This document shows positions 2,607-28,789 of a stretch of DNA of 32,000 nucleotides, in pieces; within the stretch, counting starts at the first letter, position 1; every line of letters starts with the position of its first letter. The notes beneath the pieces are model-generated. The model was not told where the DNA came from, searched no databases, and saw only the letters and a list, made by a program, of their open reading frames with translations. This stretch comes from Micrococcus luteus NCTC 2665 (GTDB taxonomy: Bacteria > Actinomycetota > Actinomycetes > Actinomycetales > Micrococcaceae). The translations under genes were made by a program, and so were the position numbers. The stretch spans positions 2,160,001 through 2,192,000 of the forward strand of contig NC_012803.1 of assembly GCF_000023205.1 (NCBI RefSeq), in the 5' to 3' direction.

Positions 2607-3557
2607 ATGCCCCGTCGCCCCGCCCCGCTGCCGCCGTCGATCGACCCCGCCGCCTTCACGGTCGACGACGCGCGCCGGGCGGGCGTGACGTGGCCCCGAC
2701 TGCAGTCCTCAGACCTGCGGCGGCTGCGCCACGGCATCTACGGGCCGGCCGGCCCCGCGGCGGTCTCCGTGCGTGAGTGGACGATGGATGAGGTCCGCGC
2801 GTACCAGCGGCGCCATCCCGACGTCGTCGTCAGCCATGAGACCGCCGCCCGCCTGCACGGCCTGACCGTGCCCGAACGGCTGCTGGCCCCCGGTGCGGTG
2901 CACGTCAGCGTCGGCACCTCGGGTGGCCGGCCGGTCCAGGCGGGTCTGGTGCCCCACCGCATCGAAGTGCCGGAGGGACAGCGGATGACGCGGGGCGGCG
3001 TGCTCGTGACGACGCCGGCCCGCACGCTGTGGGACCTGTGCGCGGCACGGTCGGCGCTCACCGGGCGGGACGTCGTCATCGCCGGTGACGCCCTGCTCTG
3101 CCCGCCGTGGCTGCCCGGCGGCGGACGCGGGGCTCCCGCCTACACCCCGGAGGAGCTCGTCCGATCGCTGGCCGAACGGGGACGTTTCCGGGGGCGCGGG
3201 CTGGCCCGGGCGGCGCTGGCGAGGATGCGCGTGGGGGCGGATTCGCCGCGCGAGACGCGTCTGCGGCTGGCGCTCGTCGACGCCGGGCTGCCGGAGCCCG
3301 AGATGCAGTGCCGGCTGGACCCGTCAGACCGCCGCGCTCCGACGGTCGACCTGGGGTATCGGCAGTGGCGCCTCGCGTTGCAATACGAGGGCGAGCACCA
3401 CCGCACCGCCGAGCAGCAGGCCCGGGACGTGCTGCGCGACCGCTGGTGCGCCGACCACGACTGGCTCTCGATCAAGGTCATGTGGGCCGACGCCCGGGAC
3501 GACTACGCGGACGTCGTCGCGCGGGTGCGGTGCCGGGCGGCCGAGTTCAGTGGGTGA
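2607..3557 (+). CDS. AbiEi-like wHTH N-terminal domain fused to a DUF559 / Vsr-like PD-(D/E)xK endonuclease domain, paralogue 1
   Basis: The C-terminal part reads SPRETRLRLALVDAGLPEPEMQ ... TVDLGY...LALQYEGEHHR ... RDRW, which fits the DUF559 pattern of D, then E-x-(D/E)-G-x-x-H-R. The N-terminus (FTVDDARRAGVTWPRLQS..LRRLRHGIY) fits the AbiEi-type wHTH region common in actinobacterial paralogue families. The start is set to ATG 2607 because similarity to the paralogue at 27551-28543 begins there (MPRRPAPLPP vs [10 protein letters not shown]). The longer ORF from 2457 runs through repeat A2. Confidence 0.7.
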   Translation: MPRRPAPLPPSIDPAAFTVDDARRAGVTWPRLQSSDLRRLRHGIYGPAGPAAVSVREWTMDEVRAYQRRHPDVVVSHETAARLHGLTVPERLLAPGAVHVSVGTSGGRPVQAGLVPHRIEVPEGQRMTRGGVLVTTPARTLWDLCAARSALTGRDVVIAGDALLCPPWLPGGGRGAPAYTPEELVRSLAERGRFRGRGLARAALARMRVGADSPRETRLRLALVDAGLPEPEMQCRLDPSDRRAPTVDLGYRQWRLALQYEGEHHRTAEQQARDVLRDRWCADHDWLSIKVMWADARDDYADVVARVRCRAAEFSG

Positions 3558-3596
3558 CCCGGTGAGATCCACGGCCACTGCAGTCCGCCACGGCTC

Positions 3597-3672
3597 CCTC
3601 GTTTCGAGGCGGGAAATCCAGGTCATGGGGCTCTGGTCCACGCCCATGGGGTCGATTTCCCGCCGCGAAAGG
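3597..3672. repeat. Family A palindromic repeat, copy A3
   Basis: The sequence reads CCTCGTTTCGAGGCGGGAAATCCA ... TCGATTTCCCGCCGCGAAAGG, with an internal CATGG/CCATGG stem. It begins 40 nt after the stop of the DUF559-type gene, and the perfect arm faces that gene. Confidence 0.75.
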
Positions 3673-5254: not shown

Positions 5255-6544
5255 TCACCCCCGCGCCAGCGACTTGACCGGCACGGCCGGGTCCGCGAGC
5301 GCGGCGGCGTCCACCACGATCCCCCGGTCGATGATGCGCCGGGCGGCCTTGACGGTCATGGGGTCGTCGATCGACGCGGCCCCGCGCAGGGTCCCGTCCG
5401 CGGCCAGGGCGAAGCTCGCCACCACGACGCCGCGCACCTCGCGGTCCACGATCCGCCCGCCGGCCGGCACCGTCATGTCCCCCACGGCCTCCACGTGGGC
5501 GTCGTGCCGGTCGGACCAGAACCACGGGGCGCCCGGGGCGTCCGCCTGCTCCCCCAGGATCGCCGCCGCGGCGGCCGCACCGGAACGCAGGGCCGGTTCC
5601 CAGTGCCGCGAGGGTGCCCACGCGGACTCCCGGGCGCGCGCGGCGTCGCCCACGGCCAGGATCCCGGGCACGGCAGTGCGGCCCATCGCGTCCGTGAGCA
5701 CGCCGTCGGCCACCTCCAGACCGGCGTCCTCGGCGAGGGCGGTGTCCGGCACGGTGCCGCCGGCCAGCACCACGACGTCGGCGTCCACGGTCCGCCCGTC
5801 GTGGAGGTGGAGCCGGTGGGCGGCCGGCAGCGCGGCGCCGCCGTCGGCGTCCCGGTGCTCGATCCAGGCCGCCCGGCCGACCTCGACAGCGACCCCGTGC
5901 TCGGCGTGCATCCGGTGCAGGCGGGCGGCCAGCGCCGGCCCGACCGCCGCGCGAGCCGGGGCGTCCGTCCCGGTCACGAGCGTCACCGCGGCGAGCGAGC
6001 GGCGCGCCGCGGCCGCGACCTCCGCCCCCGTGAAGCCGCCGCCCACGACCGCCACCTCGGTCCCGAACGTCAAACGGTCGCGCAGGGCCTCGGCGTCGGC
6101 GCGGGTGCGCAGGGTGATCAGGTCCGGGTGGTCGGCGCCGGCGACGTCGAGGGCCCGGGGTCGCCCGCCCGTGGCGAGCACGACCGCGTCCGCGTCCAGG
6201 ACCCGCCCGGAGGCCGTCTCCACCCGATGGGGCGCGGGGCCGCCGTCGGGGTGGACGCCGCCCGGCACCACCCGGACCGCCTCGTCCTCCACCAGCTCCA
6301 CACCGTGCTCGGCGAACCACGCCGGCGGGGCGAGCAGCAGGCGGTGCGCGTCCGCGTCGCCGGTCAGGAACTCCTTGCTCAGGGGCGGCCGGTCATAGGG
6401 CACGCCCTGCGGGTCCACGAGGGCGATCCCACCCGCGAAACCGCGGCGCCGCAGCTCGCGGACCACGGCGAAGCCCGCGACGCCGCCGCCCACCACGACG
6501 ACCGCGCCGGGCACGCCCGCCGGGGCCTCGACGTCGTGGCTCAT
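5255..6544 (-). CDS. FAD/NAD(P)-dependent ferredoxin reductase (pyridine nucleotide-disulfide oxidoreductase family)
   Basis: Two Rossmann motifs are present (VVVVGGGVAGFA and VAVVGGGFTGAEVA), followed by GILAVGD and WFWSD.H, as in putidaredoxin/rhodocoxin-type reductases. The start is ATG 6544 (MSHDVEAP...), which overlaps the stop of the upstream Rieske gene as ATGA. Confidence 0.85.
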   Translation of the reverse strand: MSHDVEAPAGVPGAVVVVGGGVAGFAVVRELRRRGFAGGIALVDPQGVPYDRPPLSKEFLTGDADAHRLLLAPPAWFAEHGVELVEDEAVRVVPGGVHPDGGPAPHRVETASGRVLDADAVVLATGGRPRALDVAGADHPDLITLRTRADAEALRDRLTFGTEVAVVGGGFTGAEVAAAARRSLAAVTLVTGTDAPARAAVGPALAARLHRMHAEHGVAVEVGRAAWIEHRDADGGAALPAAHRLHLHDGRTVDADVVVLAGGTVPDTALAEDAGLEVADGVLTDAMGRTAVPGILAVGDAARARESAWAPSRHWEPALRSGAAAAAAILGEQADAPGAPWFWSDRHDAHVEAVGDMTVPAGGRIVDREVRGVVVASFALAADGTLRGAASIDDPMTVKAARRIIDRGIVVDAAALADPAVPVKSLARG

Positions 6545-6870
6545 GCGCCGGGGACGAGGTAGAGCTGGCCCTCGCGCTCCTCGACGCGGTGCACGCCGAC
6601 GCCCTTGGTGGCGGGCAGGCAGAGCGCCTCGCCGGTGCGCAGGCAGAACTGCGCGGCGTGCAGCGGGCACTCCACGCGGTCGTCCTCGAGCCAGCCCTCG
6701 GCCAGCGAGGCGTCCTCGTGGGTGCACGTGTCGTCGATCGCGTGGAACTCGCCCGCGTCCGTGTGGAACACCGCGACGTCGTCCCTCGTCCCCGCCGTCG
6801 CCGCCGGGACGACGATCGCCTCGCCCTCCGGGACGTCCGCCGCCGCGCCGATGTGGATCGGCTCCGCCAT
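6541..6870 (-). CDS. Rieske [2Fe-2S] ferredoxin (oxygenase ferredoxin-component type)
   Basis: The protein is 109 aa from ATG 6870, with GAGGAGG 6 nt upstream on the minus strand. The Rieske ligand motifs are C-T-H (DDTCTHEDASL) and C-P-L-H (VECPLHAAQF). Confidence 0.85.
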   Translation of the reverse strand: MAEPIHIGAAADVPEGEAIVVPAATAGTRDDVAVFHTDAGEFHAIDDTCTHEDASLAEGWLEDDRVECPLHAAQFCLRTGEALCLPATKGVGVHRVEEREGQLYLVPGA

Positions 6871-7191
6871 GGTCTGCCTCCTCTGGTTCCCGGGCCGGGC
6901 GGCCCGTGGTGGTCTCCCGTCACCGTATCCCCCGGCGCGGACCCGGCACCCCTCCGCTGTGCTCCGCCCCGGCGCCACACCGCGCCCATCTGTGAATGGA
7001 TGAACCGGACATCACCGGGGCGTGAAATGACCCGACAAGCCTCCGAGAAATGCTCCCGGCAATGGTCGATCACGCTACGATCACGACGGCTCTCCGGCCC
7101 TCATCCCGCCCGCACCACGCCACCGACCCGGGGATGCGGCACGGCCCGCGCCTGTCGTTCCTCGGGCACTCCACCTTCCGAAGGCATCCGC

Positions 7192-9279
7192 ATGAAGATT
7201 CTCCCGCCGGGTTCCGCCGCGTCCCCCCGCCCGCTCGCGCCCGCCGTCGCGGTCGCCGCGCTCTCCGTCCTCGTCGGCGGCCTGCTCCCGCAGCAGCCGT
7301 CCGCGACCACGGAGGGCGCCCCCGACGCGCGCCCGCTCGACGACGCCGCCCGTGCCACGACCGCCGGGACGGCCACGACCCCCGCGTCGGCCGCTCCCGT
7401 CGAGGGCGCCGGCGTCGCGACCGTCCCGCAGGAGGGCGAGAACCTCGTCCCGGCCGAGGAGGCCCCGGCCGGCGTCGTGCTCGGCGAGCCCGTGGTGGAC
7501 CGTCCGTTCACGGTGGCCGCCGCCGTGTGGGACGCCGCGGCGGACGACGCCGTCGAGCGCGTGGAGATCCGCGTGCGTCAGGACGGGGCCTGGGGCCCGT
7601 GGCAGGTCCTGGATCGGCCCGTCCTGCCCGAGGACGCCGCCCCCGCACGCACCGGCACGGACCCGTTCGTCGCGTTCGGCGCGGACGGCGCCCAGCTGCG
7701 CGTGACCACCGTGGACGGCGCAGCCCCGGCCGGCCTCGAGCTGTCCCTCATCGACCCGGGCACGGCCGCCACGGACGAGACCGTCGCGAGCGCGCACCCG
7801 GCGGTGGCCGCCGAGCAGGCCGCGGAGACGGCCGGCCTGCCCCGGGGCGTGAAGTCGAGCGCCGTCGTCGGGGGCGCCGCACCCGCCGAGGCCCGCACCG
7901 TGGCCACGGCCTCGGACGCGCACGCGCACGCGCACGCGCACGCGAAGATCCTCCCGGACGTGATCACCCGCTCACAGTGGGGCGCGGACGAGTCCTGGGC
8001 CGAGTCCTCCCCGCAGTTCGACCAGGTGCGCGCGCTGACCATCCACCACACGGCCGGCACCAACGACTACACGCGCGCCCAGGCCGTGGAGCAGATGCGC
8101 GGCGTCTACGCGTACTACACGAAGACCCTCGGCTGGGGCGACTTCCCGTACCATCTGATCACGGACCGCTTCGGCAACATCTACGAGGGCCGTCGCGGCG
8201 CCCTGGACTCGAACCCGCTGGGCACGCACGCGGGCGGGTTCAACCGGGGCACGATGGGCATCTCCACGATGGGCAACTACGACGTGGTCGCCCCGTCCGA
8301 GGAGGTGGTGGACGCGATGGCCCGCGCCACCGCCTACTACCTGTACCGCGACGGCATCGACGCGCGGGGCCGGGTCACCCTGACCTCGGGCGGCAGCACG
8401 AAGTACGCCGCGGGTACGCCCGTCACCGTGGACACGATCTTCCCGCACCGGGCCACGTCCGCGACCGCGTGCCCGGGGCAGCACCTGATGGCCCGCTTCG
8501 ACGACCTGCGGGACCGCGCCGAGGCCATCGCGACGGCGGCCGGCCAGCCGCCGGCACCGACCACCCCGGCTCCGACGCCGGCCCCGACGACCGCGCCGTC
8601 GACCGCCGGCACGTACACGGTGCAGCCGAACGACGGCTGGTGGACCATCGCCCGCCGCACCGGCGTGCCCGCGGCCACCCTCCAGGAGCTCAACGGCATG
8701 ACCGAGTCGACCGTGCTCCACCCGGGCATGGTGCTGCGCACCGTCGCCGACCCGACCGCCCCGGAGCCCACCCCCATCACCACCGGCACGTACACGGTGC
8801 AGCCGAACGACGGCTGGTGGGTCATCGCCCGACGGACCGGCGTCAGCGCCGCGGAGCTCCAGCGGCTCAACGGCATGGCGGCATCCACCGTCCTGCACCC
8901 GGGGATGGTGCTCATCACGGCCGCCACGGCGCCGGCCTCCACGCCCGCGCCCGCTCCGGCCCCCGCCCCGGGCACGTACACGGTCCGCGAGGGCGACGGC
9001 TGGTGGATCATCGCCCACCGCACCGGCGTGACGATGGAGACCCTCCAGCGCCTCAACGGCATGACCGCGACCACCGTGCTGCACCCGGAGATGGTGCTGC
9101 GGACCGGCCAGACCGCCTCCGCCCCGGCGCCCTCGCCCGCCACGTACGTGGTCCAGGCGAACGACGGCTGGTGGCTCATCGCCCAGCGCACGGGCGTCTC
9201 CATGGAGCGCCTGCAACGCCTCAACGGTATGACGGTCTCGACCATGCTCCACCCGGGCATGGTGCTGCGCACCGCCTGA
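7192..9279 (+). CDS. Secreted N-acetylmuramoyl-L-alanine amidase (Amidase_2/PGRP fold) with four C-terminal LysM domains
   Basis: The start at ATG 7192 gives a signal-peptide-like N-terminus (MKILPPGSAASPRPLAPAVAVAALSVLVGG). The amidase core reads ITRSQWGADES...ALTIHHTAG.N.Y...Q....MRGVYAYY...LGWGDF.YH...D.FGNIYEGR.G...G.HAGGFN.GT.GIS.MGNY. Four repeats of GTYTV.(P/E).DGWW.IA.RTGV....LQ.LNGM..(S/T)TVLHPGM.L are LysM. The ORF track extension back to 6589 is rejected because it overlaps the Rieske gene on the opposite strand. Confidence 0.85.
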   Translation: MKILPPGSAASPRPLAPAVAVAALSVLVGGLLPQQPSATTEGAPDARPLDDAARATTAGTATTPASAAPVEGAGVATVPQEGENLVPAEEAPAGVVLGEPVVDRPFTVAAAVWDAAADDAVERVEIRVRQDGAWGPWQVLDRPVLPEDAAPARTGTDPFVAFGADGAQLRVTTVDGAAPAGLELSLIDPGTAATDETVASAHPAVAAEQAAETAGLPRGVKSSAVVGGAAPAEARTVATASDAHAHAHAHAKILPDVITRSQWGADESWAESSPQFDQVRALTIHHTAGTNDYTRAQAVEQMRGVYAYYTKTLGWGDFPYHLITDRFGNIYEGRRGALDSNPLGTHAGGFNRGTMGISTMGNYDVVAPSEEVVDAMARATAYYLYRDGIDARGRVTLTSGGSTKYAAGTPVTVDTIFPHRATSATACPGQHLMARFDDLRDRAEAIATAAGQPPAPTTPAPTPAPTTAPSTAGTYTVQPNDGWWTIARRTGVPAATLQELNGMTESTVLHPGMVLRTVADPTAPEPTPITTGTYTVQPNDGWWVIARRTGVSAAELQRLNGMAASTVLHPGMVLITAATAPASTPAPAPAPAPGTYTVREGDGWWIIAHRTGVTMETLQRLNGMTATTVLHPEMVLRTGQTASAPAPSPATYVVQANDGWWLIAQRTGVSMERLQRLNGMTVSTMLHPGMVLRTA
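7918..7944 (+). repeat. In-frame hexanucleotide microsatellite (GCGCAC)x4 + GCG, encoding (Ala-His)4-Ala
   Basis: Read directly as gcgcac gcgcac gcgcac gcgcac gcg. It lies at the linker immediately before the amidase catalytic domain. Confidence 0.9.
8608..9276 (+). repeat. Four tandem LysM-encoding modules with Pro/Ala/Thr linkers; long stretches are identical at the DNA level
   Basis: The modules start at about 8608, 8785, 8971 and 9139. GGCACGTACACGGTGCAGCCGAACGACGGCTGGTGG is repeated verbatim in modules 1 and 2. Confidence 0.85.
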
Positions 9280-9291
9280 GCACCCCGCCGG

Positions 9292-9339
9292 GACGACGTC
9301 GGCCCGCACCTTCGCGCGCAGGTGCGGGCCGACGTCGTC
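9292..9339 (+). terminator. Perfect 19-bp hairpin after the amidase gene
   Basis: GACGACGTCGGCCCGCACC (9292-9310) pairs with GGTGCGGGCCGACGTCGTC (9321-9339) across a 10-nt loop, 13 nt after the stop codon. Confidence 0.7.
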
Positions 9340-21132: not shown

Positions 21133-21180
21133 CGACGACGGCGCCGCACCCTTTGCGTGAAGGGCGCGGCGCCGTCGTCG
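21133..21180 (+). terminator. Hairpin terminator after the paaA-G operon
   Basis: CGACGACGGCGCCGCACCCTT pairs with AAGGGCGCGGCGCCGTCGTCG as a 21-bp stem with one mismatch and a 6-nt loop. It begins 19 nt after the stop codon. Confidence 0.65.
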
Positions 21181-22704: not shown

Positions 22705-22740
22705 TCCGGCCCGCCTGACGGGCTGCGCCCGTCCCCACCC

Positions 22741-22786
22741 CACGACGACGGCGCGTCCCCCTCCGGAAGGGCGCGCCGTCGTCGTG
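22741..22786 (+). terminator. Hairpin terminator after the MFS transporter gene
   Basis: CACGACGACGGCGCGTCCC ... GGGCGCGCCGTCGTCGTG is an imperfect stem of about 18 bp. It begins 37 nt after the stop codon. Confidence 0.6.
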
Positions 22787-22812
22787 CGGTGCGCGGGCCG
22801 GACCGGACCGGC

Positions 22813-22870
22813 GCCGAGGCCCGCAGACACGCCGCCACGTCGGGGACGAAGCGGCGGGTCTGCGGGCCTC
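22813..22870. repeat. Family B 58-nt hairpin repeat, copy B1
   Basis: The sequence is GCCGAGGCCCGCAGACACGCCGCCACGTCGGGGACGAAGCGGCGGGTCTGCGGGCCTC. It has the same length, ends and stem as 27487-27544 and 28610-28667. Confidence 0.7.
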
Positions 22871-22909
22871 AGCGCGGGGCGCGCTGTCCCGTCACACCCG
22901 CCCCCGCAG

Positions 22910-25920: not shown

Positions 25921-25967
25921 GGCGCTTTCGAACGGGAGATAGGGCCTATCTCCCGTTCGAAAGCGCC
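25921..25967. terminator. Perfect 22-bp-stem palindrome after paaH, either a terminator or a protein-binding site
   Basis: GGCGCTTTCGAACGGGAGATAG - GGC - CTATCTCCCGTTCGAAAGCGCC. It is noticeably less GC-rich than its surroundings. An extra half-copy, ACGTTCGAAAGTGCG, lies at 25984-25998. Confidence 0.5.
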
Positions 25968-27366: not shown

Positions 27367-27486
27367 GCGGCAGAACTCTCCGGATGAGGGGGTGGGGCGG
27401 GTCCGAGGGGACCGGTGCTCGATTCTACGCCGGTCCGGAGACGAGGGGCAGGGGGTCGACGCCGGCCTGAGGCTCCCGCCCCTCTC

Positions 27487-27544
27487 GCCGAGGCCCGCAG
27501 ACGCGCCGCCACGTCCCGGCGGTAGCGGCGCGTCTGCGGGCCTG
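27487..27544. repeat. Family B 58-nt hairpin repeat, copy B2
   Basis: The sequence is GCCGAGGCCCGCAGACGCGCCGCCACGTCCCGGCGGTAGCGGCGCGTCTGCGGGCCTG, with a 19-bp stem. It ends 6 nt from the stop of the minus-strand DUF559-type gene, so it could serve as that gene's terminator. Confidence 0.7.
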
Positions 27545-27550
27545 GGCGGG

Positions 27551-28543
27551 TCAGATCCACGACGGCGGCACTCGGCCCGGCGGCGTCCGCGCGGCCACCA
27601 GGCCCCGCAGCTGCCGCACGAACAGCTCCCAGTGCCCCGGCCGGAACACGTCGGCGGTCACCCGGATCACCTCCCACCCCTCCGCGCGCAGGGCCGCGTC
27701 CCGCTCGCGGTCCTCACGCCACTGCCGGCGATCCGTGCGGTGCTGATCGCCGTCGTACTCGACGGCCACCTTGGCCTCCGCCCACACCAGGTCCACGCGG
27801 AGCAGCTGCCCCGTGGCGAGGCGGATGCACGGGTTCACTGCGGGCTCGGGGACGCCGGCCAGGACGAGCCGCGCCCGCAGCCGGCTCTCCTGCGGCGAGT
27901 CGGACCCGGGCCGCACGAGCTCAAGCGCCTCCCGGGCCGCGCGGATCCCGCGCACCCGTCCGCGTTCCCCGACGGCGGCGCGCAGCTCGGCCACGTCCGT
28001 CACCCCGGGAGGCAGCCGACGGCGGCGGGCCTCCGTCGGGGCGGTCCGCACCATGCTGTCCCCCAGCGCGACGAGATGCTCGAGCGGCCCGGCCTGCGCG
28101 GCGAGGTCGACGAAGGTCCACCCCGGCGCGGTCACGCGCACCCCGTCCACGATCCGCACCGGTGCGTCGGCGCGGAGGCGGTGTGAGCGGATCCCGGCCC
28201 GGCTCGACGCGGTGCCGTGGCCGCGCGGGGTCGCGGTGTGCACGGACCGGTCGGCGGCGAGCGGCCCGGTCAGCCACAGGCCGAGCACCCGGGCGGCCGT
28301 GACGTGGCTGAACACGCCCTCGGGGTGCAGATCCTGCAGCGCCCGCAGATGGTCCATGGGGTCCGGTTCGACGCCGCGCAGGCCCCAGAGCCCCCAGCCG
28401 AGGGAGACCACGTCCCCGCGCCGCAGCCGGGCCGCGCTCACCCCCGCCTCGCGCGCGGCCGGGGTCGAGAACACGGTCGGAGAGCGGAGGAGGCCGTCCA
28501 GTCCGCAGCGCATCGGAGGCAGGGGCGCGGGCGAGCGGGGCAT
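27551..28543 (-). CDS. AbiEi-like wHTH N-terminal domain fused to a DUF559 / PD-(D/E)xK endonuclease domain, paralogue 2
   Basis: The protein is collinear with the 2607-3557 product: [11 protein letters not shown]....AR.AGV...[37 protein letters not shown]...[15 protein letters not shown]. The start is set to ATG 28543. The longer ORF to 28675 runs through repeat B3. Confidence 0.7.
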
Positions 28544-28609
28544 GCGCCGAGCGTGCCCGATCCGGACGGGCCGCCGTCGTCGTCCGCTGGGATCTGTGGA
28601 CGACGCCCC

Positions 28610-28667
28610 GCCGAGGCCCGCAGACACGCCGCTACGTCCTGGCGGTAGCGGCGCGTCTGCGGGCCTC
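28610..28667. repeat. Family B 58-nt hairpin repeat, copy B3
   Basis: The sequence is GCCGAGGCCCGCAGACACGCCGCTACGTCCTGGCGGTAGCGGCGCGTCTGCGGGCCTC. Its orientation matches B1 and B2. It lies 67 nt upstream of the paralogue-2 start. Confidence 0.7.
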
Positions 28668-28767
28668 GGCGCCACGGCTTGCGCGGCGAAGCCCTCTCCA
28701 CGACGACGGCGTCACCGGCCCGGCTCCCCCCTCCCGCGTGATCCACGTCTCGGCTAGGGTGAGGAGC

Positions 28768-28789
28768 AATAACCGACCGATCGGTCGGG
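28768..28789. promoter_or_regulatory. Candidate PaaR-type operator upstream of paaZ, with the 16-bp palindrome CCGACCGATCGGTCGG
   Basis: AATAACCGACCGATCGGTCGGG matches the remembered ACTNACCGNNCGNNCGGTNAGT motif at 15 of 18 specified positions. It ends 32 nt upstream of GTG 28822. Confidence 0.55.

Follow-up and report, generated by a model that had tools for sequence, protein, structure and literature searches.

Fused AbiEi-DUF559 genes framed by private palindromes point to a gene-specific protein-repeat partnership in Micrococcus luteus and its relatives

We analyzed a 32,000-nt stretch of Micrococcus luteus NCTC 2665 (NC_012803.1, positions 2,160,001 to 2,192,000), here called the window; positions are those of the window unless another locus is named. 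A minus-strand gene at 27551-28543 encodes a 330-aa protein that joins a DNA-binding module of the AbiEi type to a DUF559/Vsr-like nuclease domain of predicted activity, and it stands between two near-identical long palindromes, termed family B. In 11 of 13 homologues examined, the upstream and downstream flanks carry the same palindrome, which differs from gene to gene. That relatives are framed by different palindromes points to an undescribed, gene-specific partnership between protein and repeat. We give a probability of roughly 55% to the reading that the flanking palindromes are the protein's own cognate sites, which would make the unit a self-repressing, insulated accessory cassette with a tethered nuclease. 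Judging from the sequence and its comparison with relatives, the protein most likely binds its own palindromes; binding, autoregulation, cleavage, and any mobility are what we infer from this arrangement. The principal elements are as follows.

27551-28543, minus strand: gene for the 330-aa protein, with an AbiEi-like DNA-binding module (residues ~1-210) and a DUF559/Vsr-like nuclease (~215-320)
27486-27548, no strand assigned: palindrome B2, 63 nt, directly 3' of the stop codon of the 27551-28543 gene
28609-28671, no strand assigned: palindrome B3, 63 nt, 66 nt 5' of the ATG and 94% identical to B2
22812-22874, no strand assigned: palindrome B1, a solo copy 3' of an MFS gene, separated from B2 by 4.6 kb and six genes

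A sequence-only reading of this DNA had described three near-identical family B hairpins, two of them around the 27551-28543 gene, and this was borne out by repeat search, folding, and shuffling. Repeat search and alignment across the window recovered three copies of 63 nt with a mutual identity of 86-94%. Their common 19-nt stem, AGGCCCGCAGACRCGCCGC, gave six arm matches (three hairpins) compared with 0.42 expected by chance, and six matches were attained by none of 100 shuffles. Each of B1, B2, and B3 folded into a long stem, with z of about -5 to -8 relative to shuffled sequence. The 19-bp stem described earlier is present, but the true stems are longer, with 26-27 paired of 29-30 positions; a family B palindrome consists of a pair of inverted half-sites of ~27-30 bp separated by a gap of 3-9 nt. 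Pairing extends to the ends of the element (CGCCGAGG/CCTCGGCG), a terminal GTAG or CGTC tag is absent, and the B2 stem lies 2-6 nt from the stop codon. The small GC hairpins that had been reported beside every B copy also exist, but they share no homology: the one at 22741-22786 is of a generic GACGACGGCG type and lies 3' of the MFS gene, the one at 28573-28606 is part of the leader of the 27551-28543 gene and contains a DnaA-box-like 9-mer, and the one at 27446-27487 is unrelated to both.

No T-run follows any family B copy, and a terminator scan was empty at B2 and B3; a sigma-70 promoter scan likewise gave no match, both scans being uninformative in a genome of 73% GC. Searching the entire window against Rfam returned no match at gathering score. 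G.U pairs showed no strand asymmetry (30 versus 29), and this balance, together with the missing Rfam family and the missing T-tract, points to a role at the level of DNA. An RNA role on one strand was considered and dropped, given that G.U versus A.C strand asymmetry and an Rfam match were both absent.

Bracketing, and the assignment of paralogues to palindrome families, rest on 13 loci. Within Micrococcus, the bracketed genes are A and B in the window, D (L157), B' (P0002, L176), E (P0005, L180), C (P0011, L123), and F (P0013, L181), of which A, B, and D belong to M. luteus-type genomes and B', C, E, and F to other Micrococcus. The remainder came from Subtercola (L184, with a single copy upstream and a pair downstream), two Arthrobacter megaplasmids (L187 and L189), and a contig of a phage collection (L188). 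When upstream and downstream flanks were aligned locally with each other, bracketed units scored 25-55, against a background of 15.1 ± 3.2 (mean and standard deviation; maximum 29) for 113 ordinary genes of the same loci. Across units, the palindromes measured 50-75 nt, with arms of 19-30 bp and a gap of 3-33 nt; the upstream copy lay 65-200 nt upstream, and the downstream copy touched or overlapped the stop codon in most units. The proposal that every paralogue has a repeat family of its own, made for the two genes of the window, thus generalizes to 11 of 13 homologues with a private palindrome.

Long GC-rich intergenic palindromes of actinobacteria are usually written off as terminators. An account on those lines, in which ordinary factor-independent terminators or insulators beside a foreign gene were duplicated through slippage or gene conversion and bear no relation to the protein, seems very improbable to us. 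Long GC hairpins are indeed plentiful in the intergenic regions of M. luteus (13 strong ones in the 32-kb window, mostly of the generic GACGACGGCG type), solo B copies are placed where terminators classically lie, and the MFS gene also lies between two similar generic hairpins (score 29). Against this, the same rare family stands on both sides of the gene across three genera, and it is a different family each time; recurrence of this kind in 11 of 13 homologues makes coincidental terminators untenable and chance negligible. Moreover, palindrome and protein change together, whereas the leader stays conserved.

The domain architecture was consistent between profile searches and structural modeling. 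Pfam detected only DUF559 (PF04480; 28.6 bits, cut-off 20.6) and REase_MTES_1575 (32.4 bits), both at the C-terminus, an HUH/Y1 transposase domain being absent; NCBIfam held no model for the protein. PADLOC AbiEi models matched it with an E value of 8e-11, and in four of the four paralogues tested they covered residues ~17-190 (E from 1e-8 down to 2e-14). An AlphaFold model based on 69 homologues (predicted local distance difference test, 95.1; predicted template modeling score, 0.91) had as its top Foldseek match in the PDB the AbiEi antitoxin 6Y8Q (E 3e-8, probability 1.00). Its C-terminal domain superposed on the catalytic domain of I-Bth0305I (3R3P) with a template modeling score of 0.75 and a root-mean-square deviation of 2.9 Å, and also on the nuclease domains of PvuRts1I, AbaSI, and Vsr, and the family profile matched the DUF559 structure 3HRL (E 8e-6). 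The core D...E.D G..H...D..R is present in the B protein as D251, E262, D264, H268, D278, and R281. In an alignment of 15 sequences, D251, Y263, G265, H268, D278, and R281 were invariant, and among 69 sequences G265, H268, and D278 stayed invariant with D251, E262, Y263, and R281 at least 90% conserved. The ATG start is supported by an N-terminus, MPR.P.PLP, that is conserved in homologues. No AbiEii (DUF1814) toxin gene adjoins the 27551-28543 gene, whose neighbors are panD and paaZ, nor was one present in the related loci listed.

In its own promoter, AbiEi recognizes a pair of 23-bp inverted repeats with 3 bp between them; the inverted-repeat pairs bound by Rv2827c are spaced 13 bp apart and lie no more than 131 bp from its own start codon; and neither protein binds the other's site (PMC7319586). 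Because the palindromes described here have the geometry of an AbiEi operator, occupy a corresponding position, and change with the protein, we propose the palindromes as the binding sites of their respective proteins. This account, which is simpler than a REPtron-like partnership and was not raised in the sequence-only reading, fits equally well. The AbiEi module, seated on the upstream palindrome, would repress its own, potentially dangerous gene. The downstream palindrome at the stop codon could act as a second site and as a transcription stop, and would in this way insulate the cassette from panD and paaZ. Both palindromes would also retain the fused nuclease, and rare nuclease-dependent cutting or recombination there may have given rise to extra copies, both a few genes away and at distant sites. 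The same events might keep the flanking copies alike while the palindrome changes with the protein, and might allow a cassette to be swapped or inverted between conserved flanks.

Co-divergence was visible among close relatives. Palindrome similarity was recognizable only for the closest protein pairs, the median score of distant pairs being 7. For B and B' (71% protein identity) the palindrome score was 26, and the inner stem CGCGCCGCTACG was retained in B' with the outer stem altered on both arms together. Scores were 12 for the two Subtercola paralogues (70% identity) and 11 for E and C (66% identity). Within the B clade, the leader near the ATG stays homologous and the palindromes are swapped. 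Apparent compensatory changes can be neutral, through template switching within a palindrome; since palindromes correct themselves in this manner, we do not claim the compensatory changes in the stems as selection.

The conserved leader and a motif within it occupy the space between B3 and the gene.

28544-28608, minus strand: leader between B3 and the ATG, homologous across B-clade cassettes despite different palindromes
28595-28603, minus strand: DnaA-box-like 9-mer TCGTCCACA, one mismatch to TTGTCCACA, 51 nt 5' of the ATG

B-clade leaders have in common GT(C/T)GTCCACAG..GACGACGACGG..GGGCAC.CTCGG.GCATG. With at most one mismatch allowed, the 9-mer has its sole match in the 32-kb window at 28595-28603. 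The motif TTRTCCACA (one mismatch or none, either strand) occurred in 10 of 13 leaders, 36-51 nt 5' of the ATG and exact in eight of them; the leaders concerned are those of the window B gene, L123, L157, L176, L180, L184-L187, and L189. Exact TTRTCCACA was found seven times in 116 kb of non-redundant sequence, every time within these leaders. High-affinity DnaA boxes read TTATCCACA in Escherichia coli and TTGTCCACA in Mycobacterium and Streptomyces (PMC4285127). The leader 9-mer suggests that host DnaA may also act on the cassette promoter; if real, the motif would tie a selfish-looking cassette to the host's replication initiator.

Comparison with relatives by blastn delimited the cassette on both sides.

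27430-28700, no strand assigned: variable accessory cassette consisting of palindrome, gene, leader, and palindrome, between the promoter regions of panD and paaZ, which are conserved

The gene lies beside the paa cluster, with panD on one side and a PaaZ-type gene on the other. Homology with relatives ends near 28701 on the paaZ side (92% identity for L180, 78% for L123) and restarts near 27430 on the panD side (85% for L181, 86% for L123), and these two breaks define a variable module of ~1.27 kb. Its interior is replaced in L180 and L123 and inverted in L181, where the homologue runs opposite to the B gene with respect to both flanks. Homologues in the panD-paaZ gap of relatives are 55-71% identical to the B protein, compared with 86-97% for PanD and PaaZ; in L123 an RDD-domain gene occupies the gap, with the homologue ~7 kb away. 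The earlier suggestion that the unit interrupts the cluster as an insertion between panD and paaZ accordingly finds its counterpart in an accessory cassette that is replaced or inverted in relatives between conserved flanks. Identical B proteins occur in M. luteus GCA_003417425, CP035298, LS483396, and others, and the gene is present in 10 of 10 contexts having the exact PanD sequence; it is therefore fixed within M. luteus. The empty panD-paaZ sites that were to be sought in related genomes did not turn up: none was seen among the 10 M. luteus contexts or the relatives, in which another cassette or the RDD gene fills the gap.

These boundaries bear on the possibility that the flanking repeats are a duplicated integration site, formed when a circular cassette with one palindrome recombined with a pre-existing chromosomal palindrome resembling a repetitive extragenic palindrome (REP) or terminator (attP x attB or attC-like), the solo copies being unused targets or excision scars. 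Such an origin would explain direct repeats around a discrete module, and solo copies do exist. A palindromic integration site would permit insertion in either orientation, and the cassette of L181 stands in reverse between those flanks. The position of the downstream copy, touching or overlapping the stop codon, recalls that of attC sites, and two metagenome contigs, L163 (1-300) and L158 (1-100), carry a junction of gene 3' end, palindrome, and leader, such as a circular or head-to-tail tandem form of the cassette would give. Those junctions, however, were assembled through the repeat at 3-8x coverage and may be an assembly artifact. There was no integrase domain among the 22 window proteins scanned, an empty site with a single palindrome was not found, and solo sites of types 3-5 showed no cassette remnants. 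We consider this origin unlikely; it would in any case imply cognate recognition, since the palindrome of the cassette would have to match the target family.

Family B also occurs away from the gene. A two-arm exact-pattern scan of metagenome contigs, by which all family B copy numbers are lower bounds, identified 32 Micrococcus-like loci. Besides the bracket pair, these comprised three site types, each with one palindrome where two unrelated genes converge (response regulator/TetR, HlyIII-like/small protein, and DUF808/hydrolase) and 35-65 nt from the stop codons. In a single metagenome sample, the bracket pair and all three solo types were recovered on four contigs, i.e., at least five copies, and counting B1 there are at least six per genome. 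Beyond its bracket, each of families A, B, C, and D includes a third copy at a distance of one to six genes (1-5 kb). With solo copies in terminator- or REP-like positions at no fewer than three other loci, family B extends beyond the site of the nuclease gene. The sequence-only reading had named generic occurrence after unrelated genes, and absence of the repeats from other members of the clade, as observations that would speak against a partnership: the solo copies show the former in part, and the latter is not what the homologues show. Deletion footprints were considered as a source of the solo copies and rejected, as no leader or gene remnants lie beside types 3-5; the flank of B1 is weakly leader-like, through a generic GACGACGACGGCG motif.

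Dispersed copies are what a true analogue of the REPtrons would leave behind, with a nuclease that spreads its palindromes genome-wide and a gene that persists as a domesticated single-copy resident. REPtrons, too, consist of a single-copy, vertically held nuclease-type gene between dispersed palindromic repeats, with one repeat family per paralogue, and where REP families coexist, repeat-specific REPtrons are the rule (PMC3733652). In the present case each paralogue is single-copy, fixed in its species, and at a conserved locus, with its own repeat family at the flanks and in dispersed copies (at least six for B, from the sample plus the window), among them the third copies of A, B, C, and D that lie 1-5 kb away. 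The copy number is low, however, and no polymorphism of solo copies between strains was seen; the enzyme is of a different class, without an HUH/Y1 domain, and its catalytic motifs are altered in A and D. To our knowledge, there is also no mechanism for the copying of a palindrome by a Vsr-like nuclease. We rate a true analogue as improbable. The comparison with REPtrons that had been drawn from the sequence therefore holds as a pattern, with the gene flanked on both sides by a family of its own, but not as membership, given the missing HUH/Y1 domain and the ~6 copies.

Several observations weigh against palindromes that serve each protein as cognate sites in a self-repressing cassette. Two of the 13 loci depart from full bracketing: in the second Subtercola paralogue the upstream copy is intact and the downstream copy has decayed to half, and a Herbiconiux gene has a downstream hairpin alone with no upstream twin. 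It is often the upstream copy that has degenerated more (C, D, and E), not what one would expect of an essential operator. For the solo B copies, placed as they are between convergent genes, no operator role is obvious. The changes on paired arms can have arisen neutrally. At the nuclease, A and D have Q/H at position 262, the first acidic residue of the motif, and E at 264, and the corresponding motif of paralogue A is LQYEGEHH where B has VEYDGDQH; given this altered residue, nuclease activity may not be universal in the family.

The system belongs neither to the REPtrons nor to AbiE: it lacks the HUH transposase and GTAG tag of the former and the AbiEii toxin of the latter, and its copy number as counted here is low. 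REPtrons encode an HUH/Y1 IS200-like (IS200/IS605) transposase, whereas the protein here combines AbiEi with a Vsr-like PD-(D/E)XK-type nuclease. REP palindromes are 20-40 nt long, carry a terminal GTAG/CGTC tag, and number ~100 or more per genome; those described here are 50-75 nt with arms of 19-30 bp, family B has no tag, and ~6 family B copies were counted, from exact-pattern matches only. The lineage is actinobacterial, unlike that of REPtrons, and a REP survey across 8 phyla leaves Actinobacteria unmentioned. With AbiEi and Rv2827c of the type IV AbiE toxin-antitoxin systems, the protein shares the AbiEi fold, with an N-terminal winged helix, over its N-terminal ~200 residues, and the operators of those proteins are likewise a long inverted-repeat pair upstream of the gene, matching in half-site length and spacing (PMC7319586). 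AbiE, however, has the AbiEii toxin gene in its operon, where a nuclease domain is fused instead in the present family, and the cassette differs from AbiE in repeating its palindrome downstream and at other loci.

The nuclease part agrees with DUF559/Vsr-like proteins (3HRL; Vsr, 1VSR) and with the EDxHD enzyme I-Bth0305I (3R3P) in profile, fold, and acidic/His core. As a hypervariable insert between conserved genes, the cassette resembles a free-standing homing endonuclease gene; it does not, however, lie in an intron or intein, and it brings whole, duplicated palindromes instead of splitting a target site. Integron cassettes similarly consist of a gene followed by an imperfect palindrome (57-141-nt class), and arrays of palindrome, gene, palindrome, gene, and palindrome in one orientation are seen in families A, B, C, and D. 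Integrons, though, depend on IntI and attI, and neither an integrase, by the scan of the 22 window proteins, nor an attI is present; the cassette here has its own leader, and the neighboring "cassettes" are core metabolic genes.

Among the listed papers of a full-text library that mention DUF559 (22 of 25), none deals with flanking repeats. AbiEi-DUF559 fusion genes are very common in Actinobacteria, and proteins with a DUF559 domain are among the commonest genes of "unknown function" in actinobacterial genomes. A rule of one gene and one palindrome that spans genera would give both these proteins and the long intergenic palindromes a testable function, that of a sequence-specific DNA-binding nuclease and its target predictable from the genome, and would constitute a second enzyme-repeat partnership besides that of REP-associated tyrosine transposases (RAYTs) and REPs, mechanistically unrelated to it. 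If the proteins are specific, each paralogue would amount to a natural nuclease whose long site looks programmable. A further idea, which we regard as doubtful, is that AbiEi-DUF559 fusions form an unrecognized class of domesticated site-specific nucleases that recognize and occasionally propagate their own palindrome, possibly gated by a DnaA box. If true, this would be a non-HUH counterpart of RAYT-REP and supply the first dedicated enzyme for the REP-like palindromes of actinobacteria.

The other paralogue of the window and its family A palindromes are located as follows.

2607-3557, plus strand: paralogue A, 316 aa, sharing 38% identity with B and lying between family A palindromes
329-405, no strand assigned: palindrome A1, a third copy two genes upstream of A2, kept in 10 of 10 strain contexts
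2407-2483, no strand assigned: palindrome A2, upstream of paralogue A
3596-3672, no strand assigned: palindrome A3, downstream of paralogue A
28514-28558, minus strand: start-codon region of the B gene, 82% identical in DNA to 2592-2636 of paralogue A

By BLASTP, A and B are 38% identical (E 2e-36), close to the third of positions estimated earlier by eye. The 45 nt over the two start codons encode MPR(R/S)PAPLPP in both genes and are preceded by GGGCACGCTCG(C/G)CGC.

Several further palindromes were noted. At 28773-28788, 5' of the PaaZ-type gene, the palindrome CCGACCGATCGGTCGG is conserved in L123, L176, L180, and L181; it is probably the operator of a paa regulator, a TetR gene being nearby in L001 and L123. 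Generic hairpins with stems on GACGACGGCG..GCACC follow many unrelated genes (251-293, 9292-9339, 21133-21180, 22734-22793, and L124 6204-6254), and this hairpin looks like the usual T-tract-less terminator of M. luteus and a loose repeat family. Another palindrome family (ACGCGGGTTGAGTTGTCGCGGG..., with a 28-bp stem) occupies unrelated loci (L124 6291-6349 and L126 20354-20416), and no cognate gene for it was identified in the sequence around either. A perfect, AT-richer palindrome with a 22-bp stem (GGCGCTTTCGAACGGGAGATAGG...) separates paaH from the YjbR gene at 25921-25967; in L174 and L175 (~5466-6566) an IS481-family element abuts it, with a partial left arm beyond the insertion sequence.

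Strain-specific rearrangements occur near both cassettes. Relative to L001, L002 (CP035298) has at 5775-7602, after paaZ, genes for a glycine transporter, DUF1846, a DNA methylase, and an HNH protein. In the comparison of L125 (from 11000) with L124, QVMY01000001 is without a called SelO gene 3' of A3, and a Wadjet-like JetB/JetC cluster comes next. The YjbR gene beside panD is only a 42-aa open reading frame in some M. luteus (L166, L170, and L172, 4954-5083). Elsewhere in the window, four tandem copies of ~178 nt at 8603-9311, 69-77% identical, are the LysM repeats of an amidase/LysM cell-wall gene.

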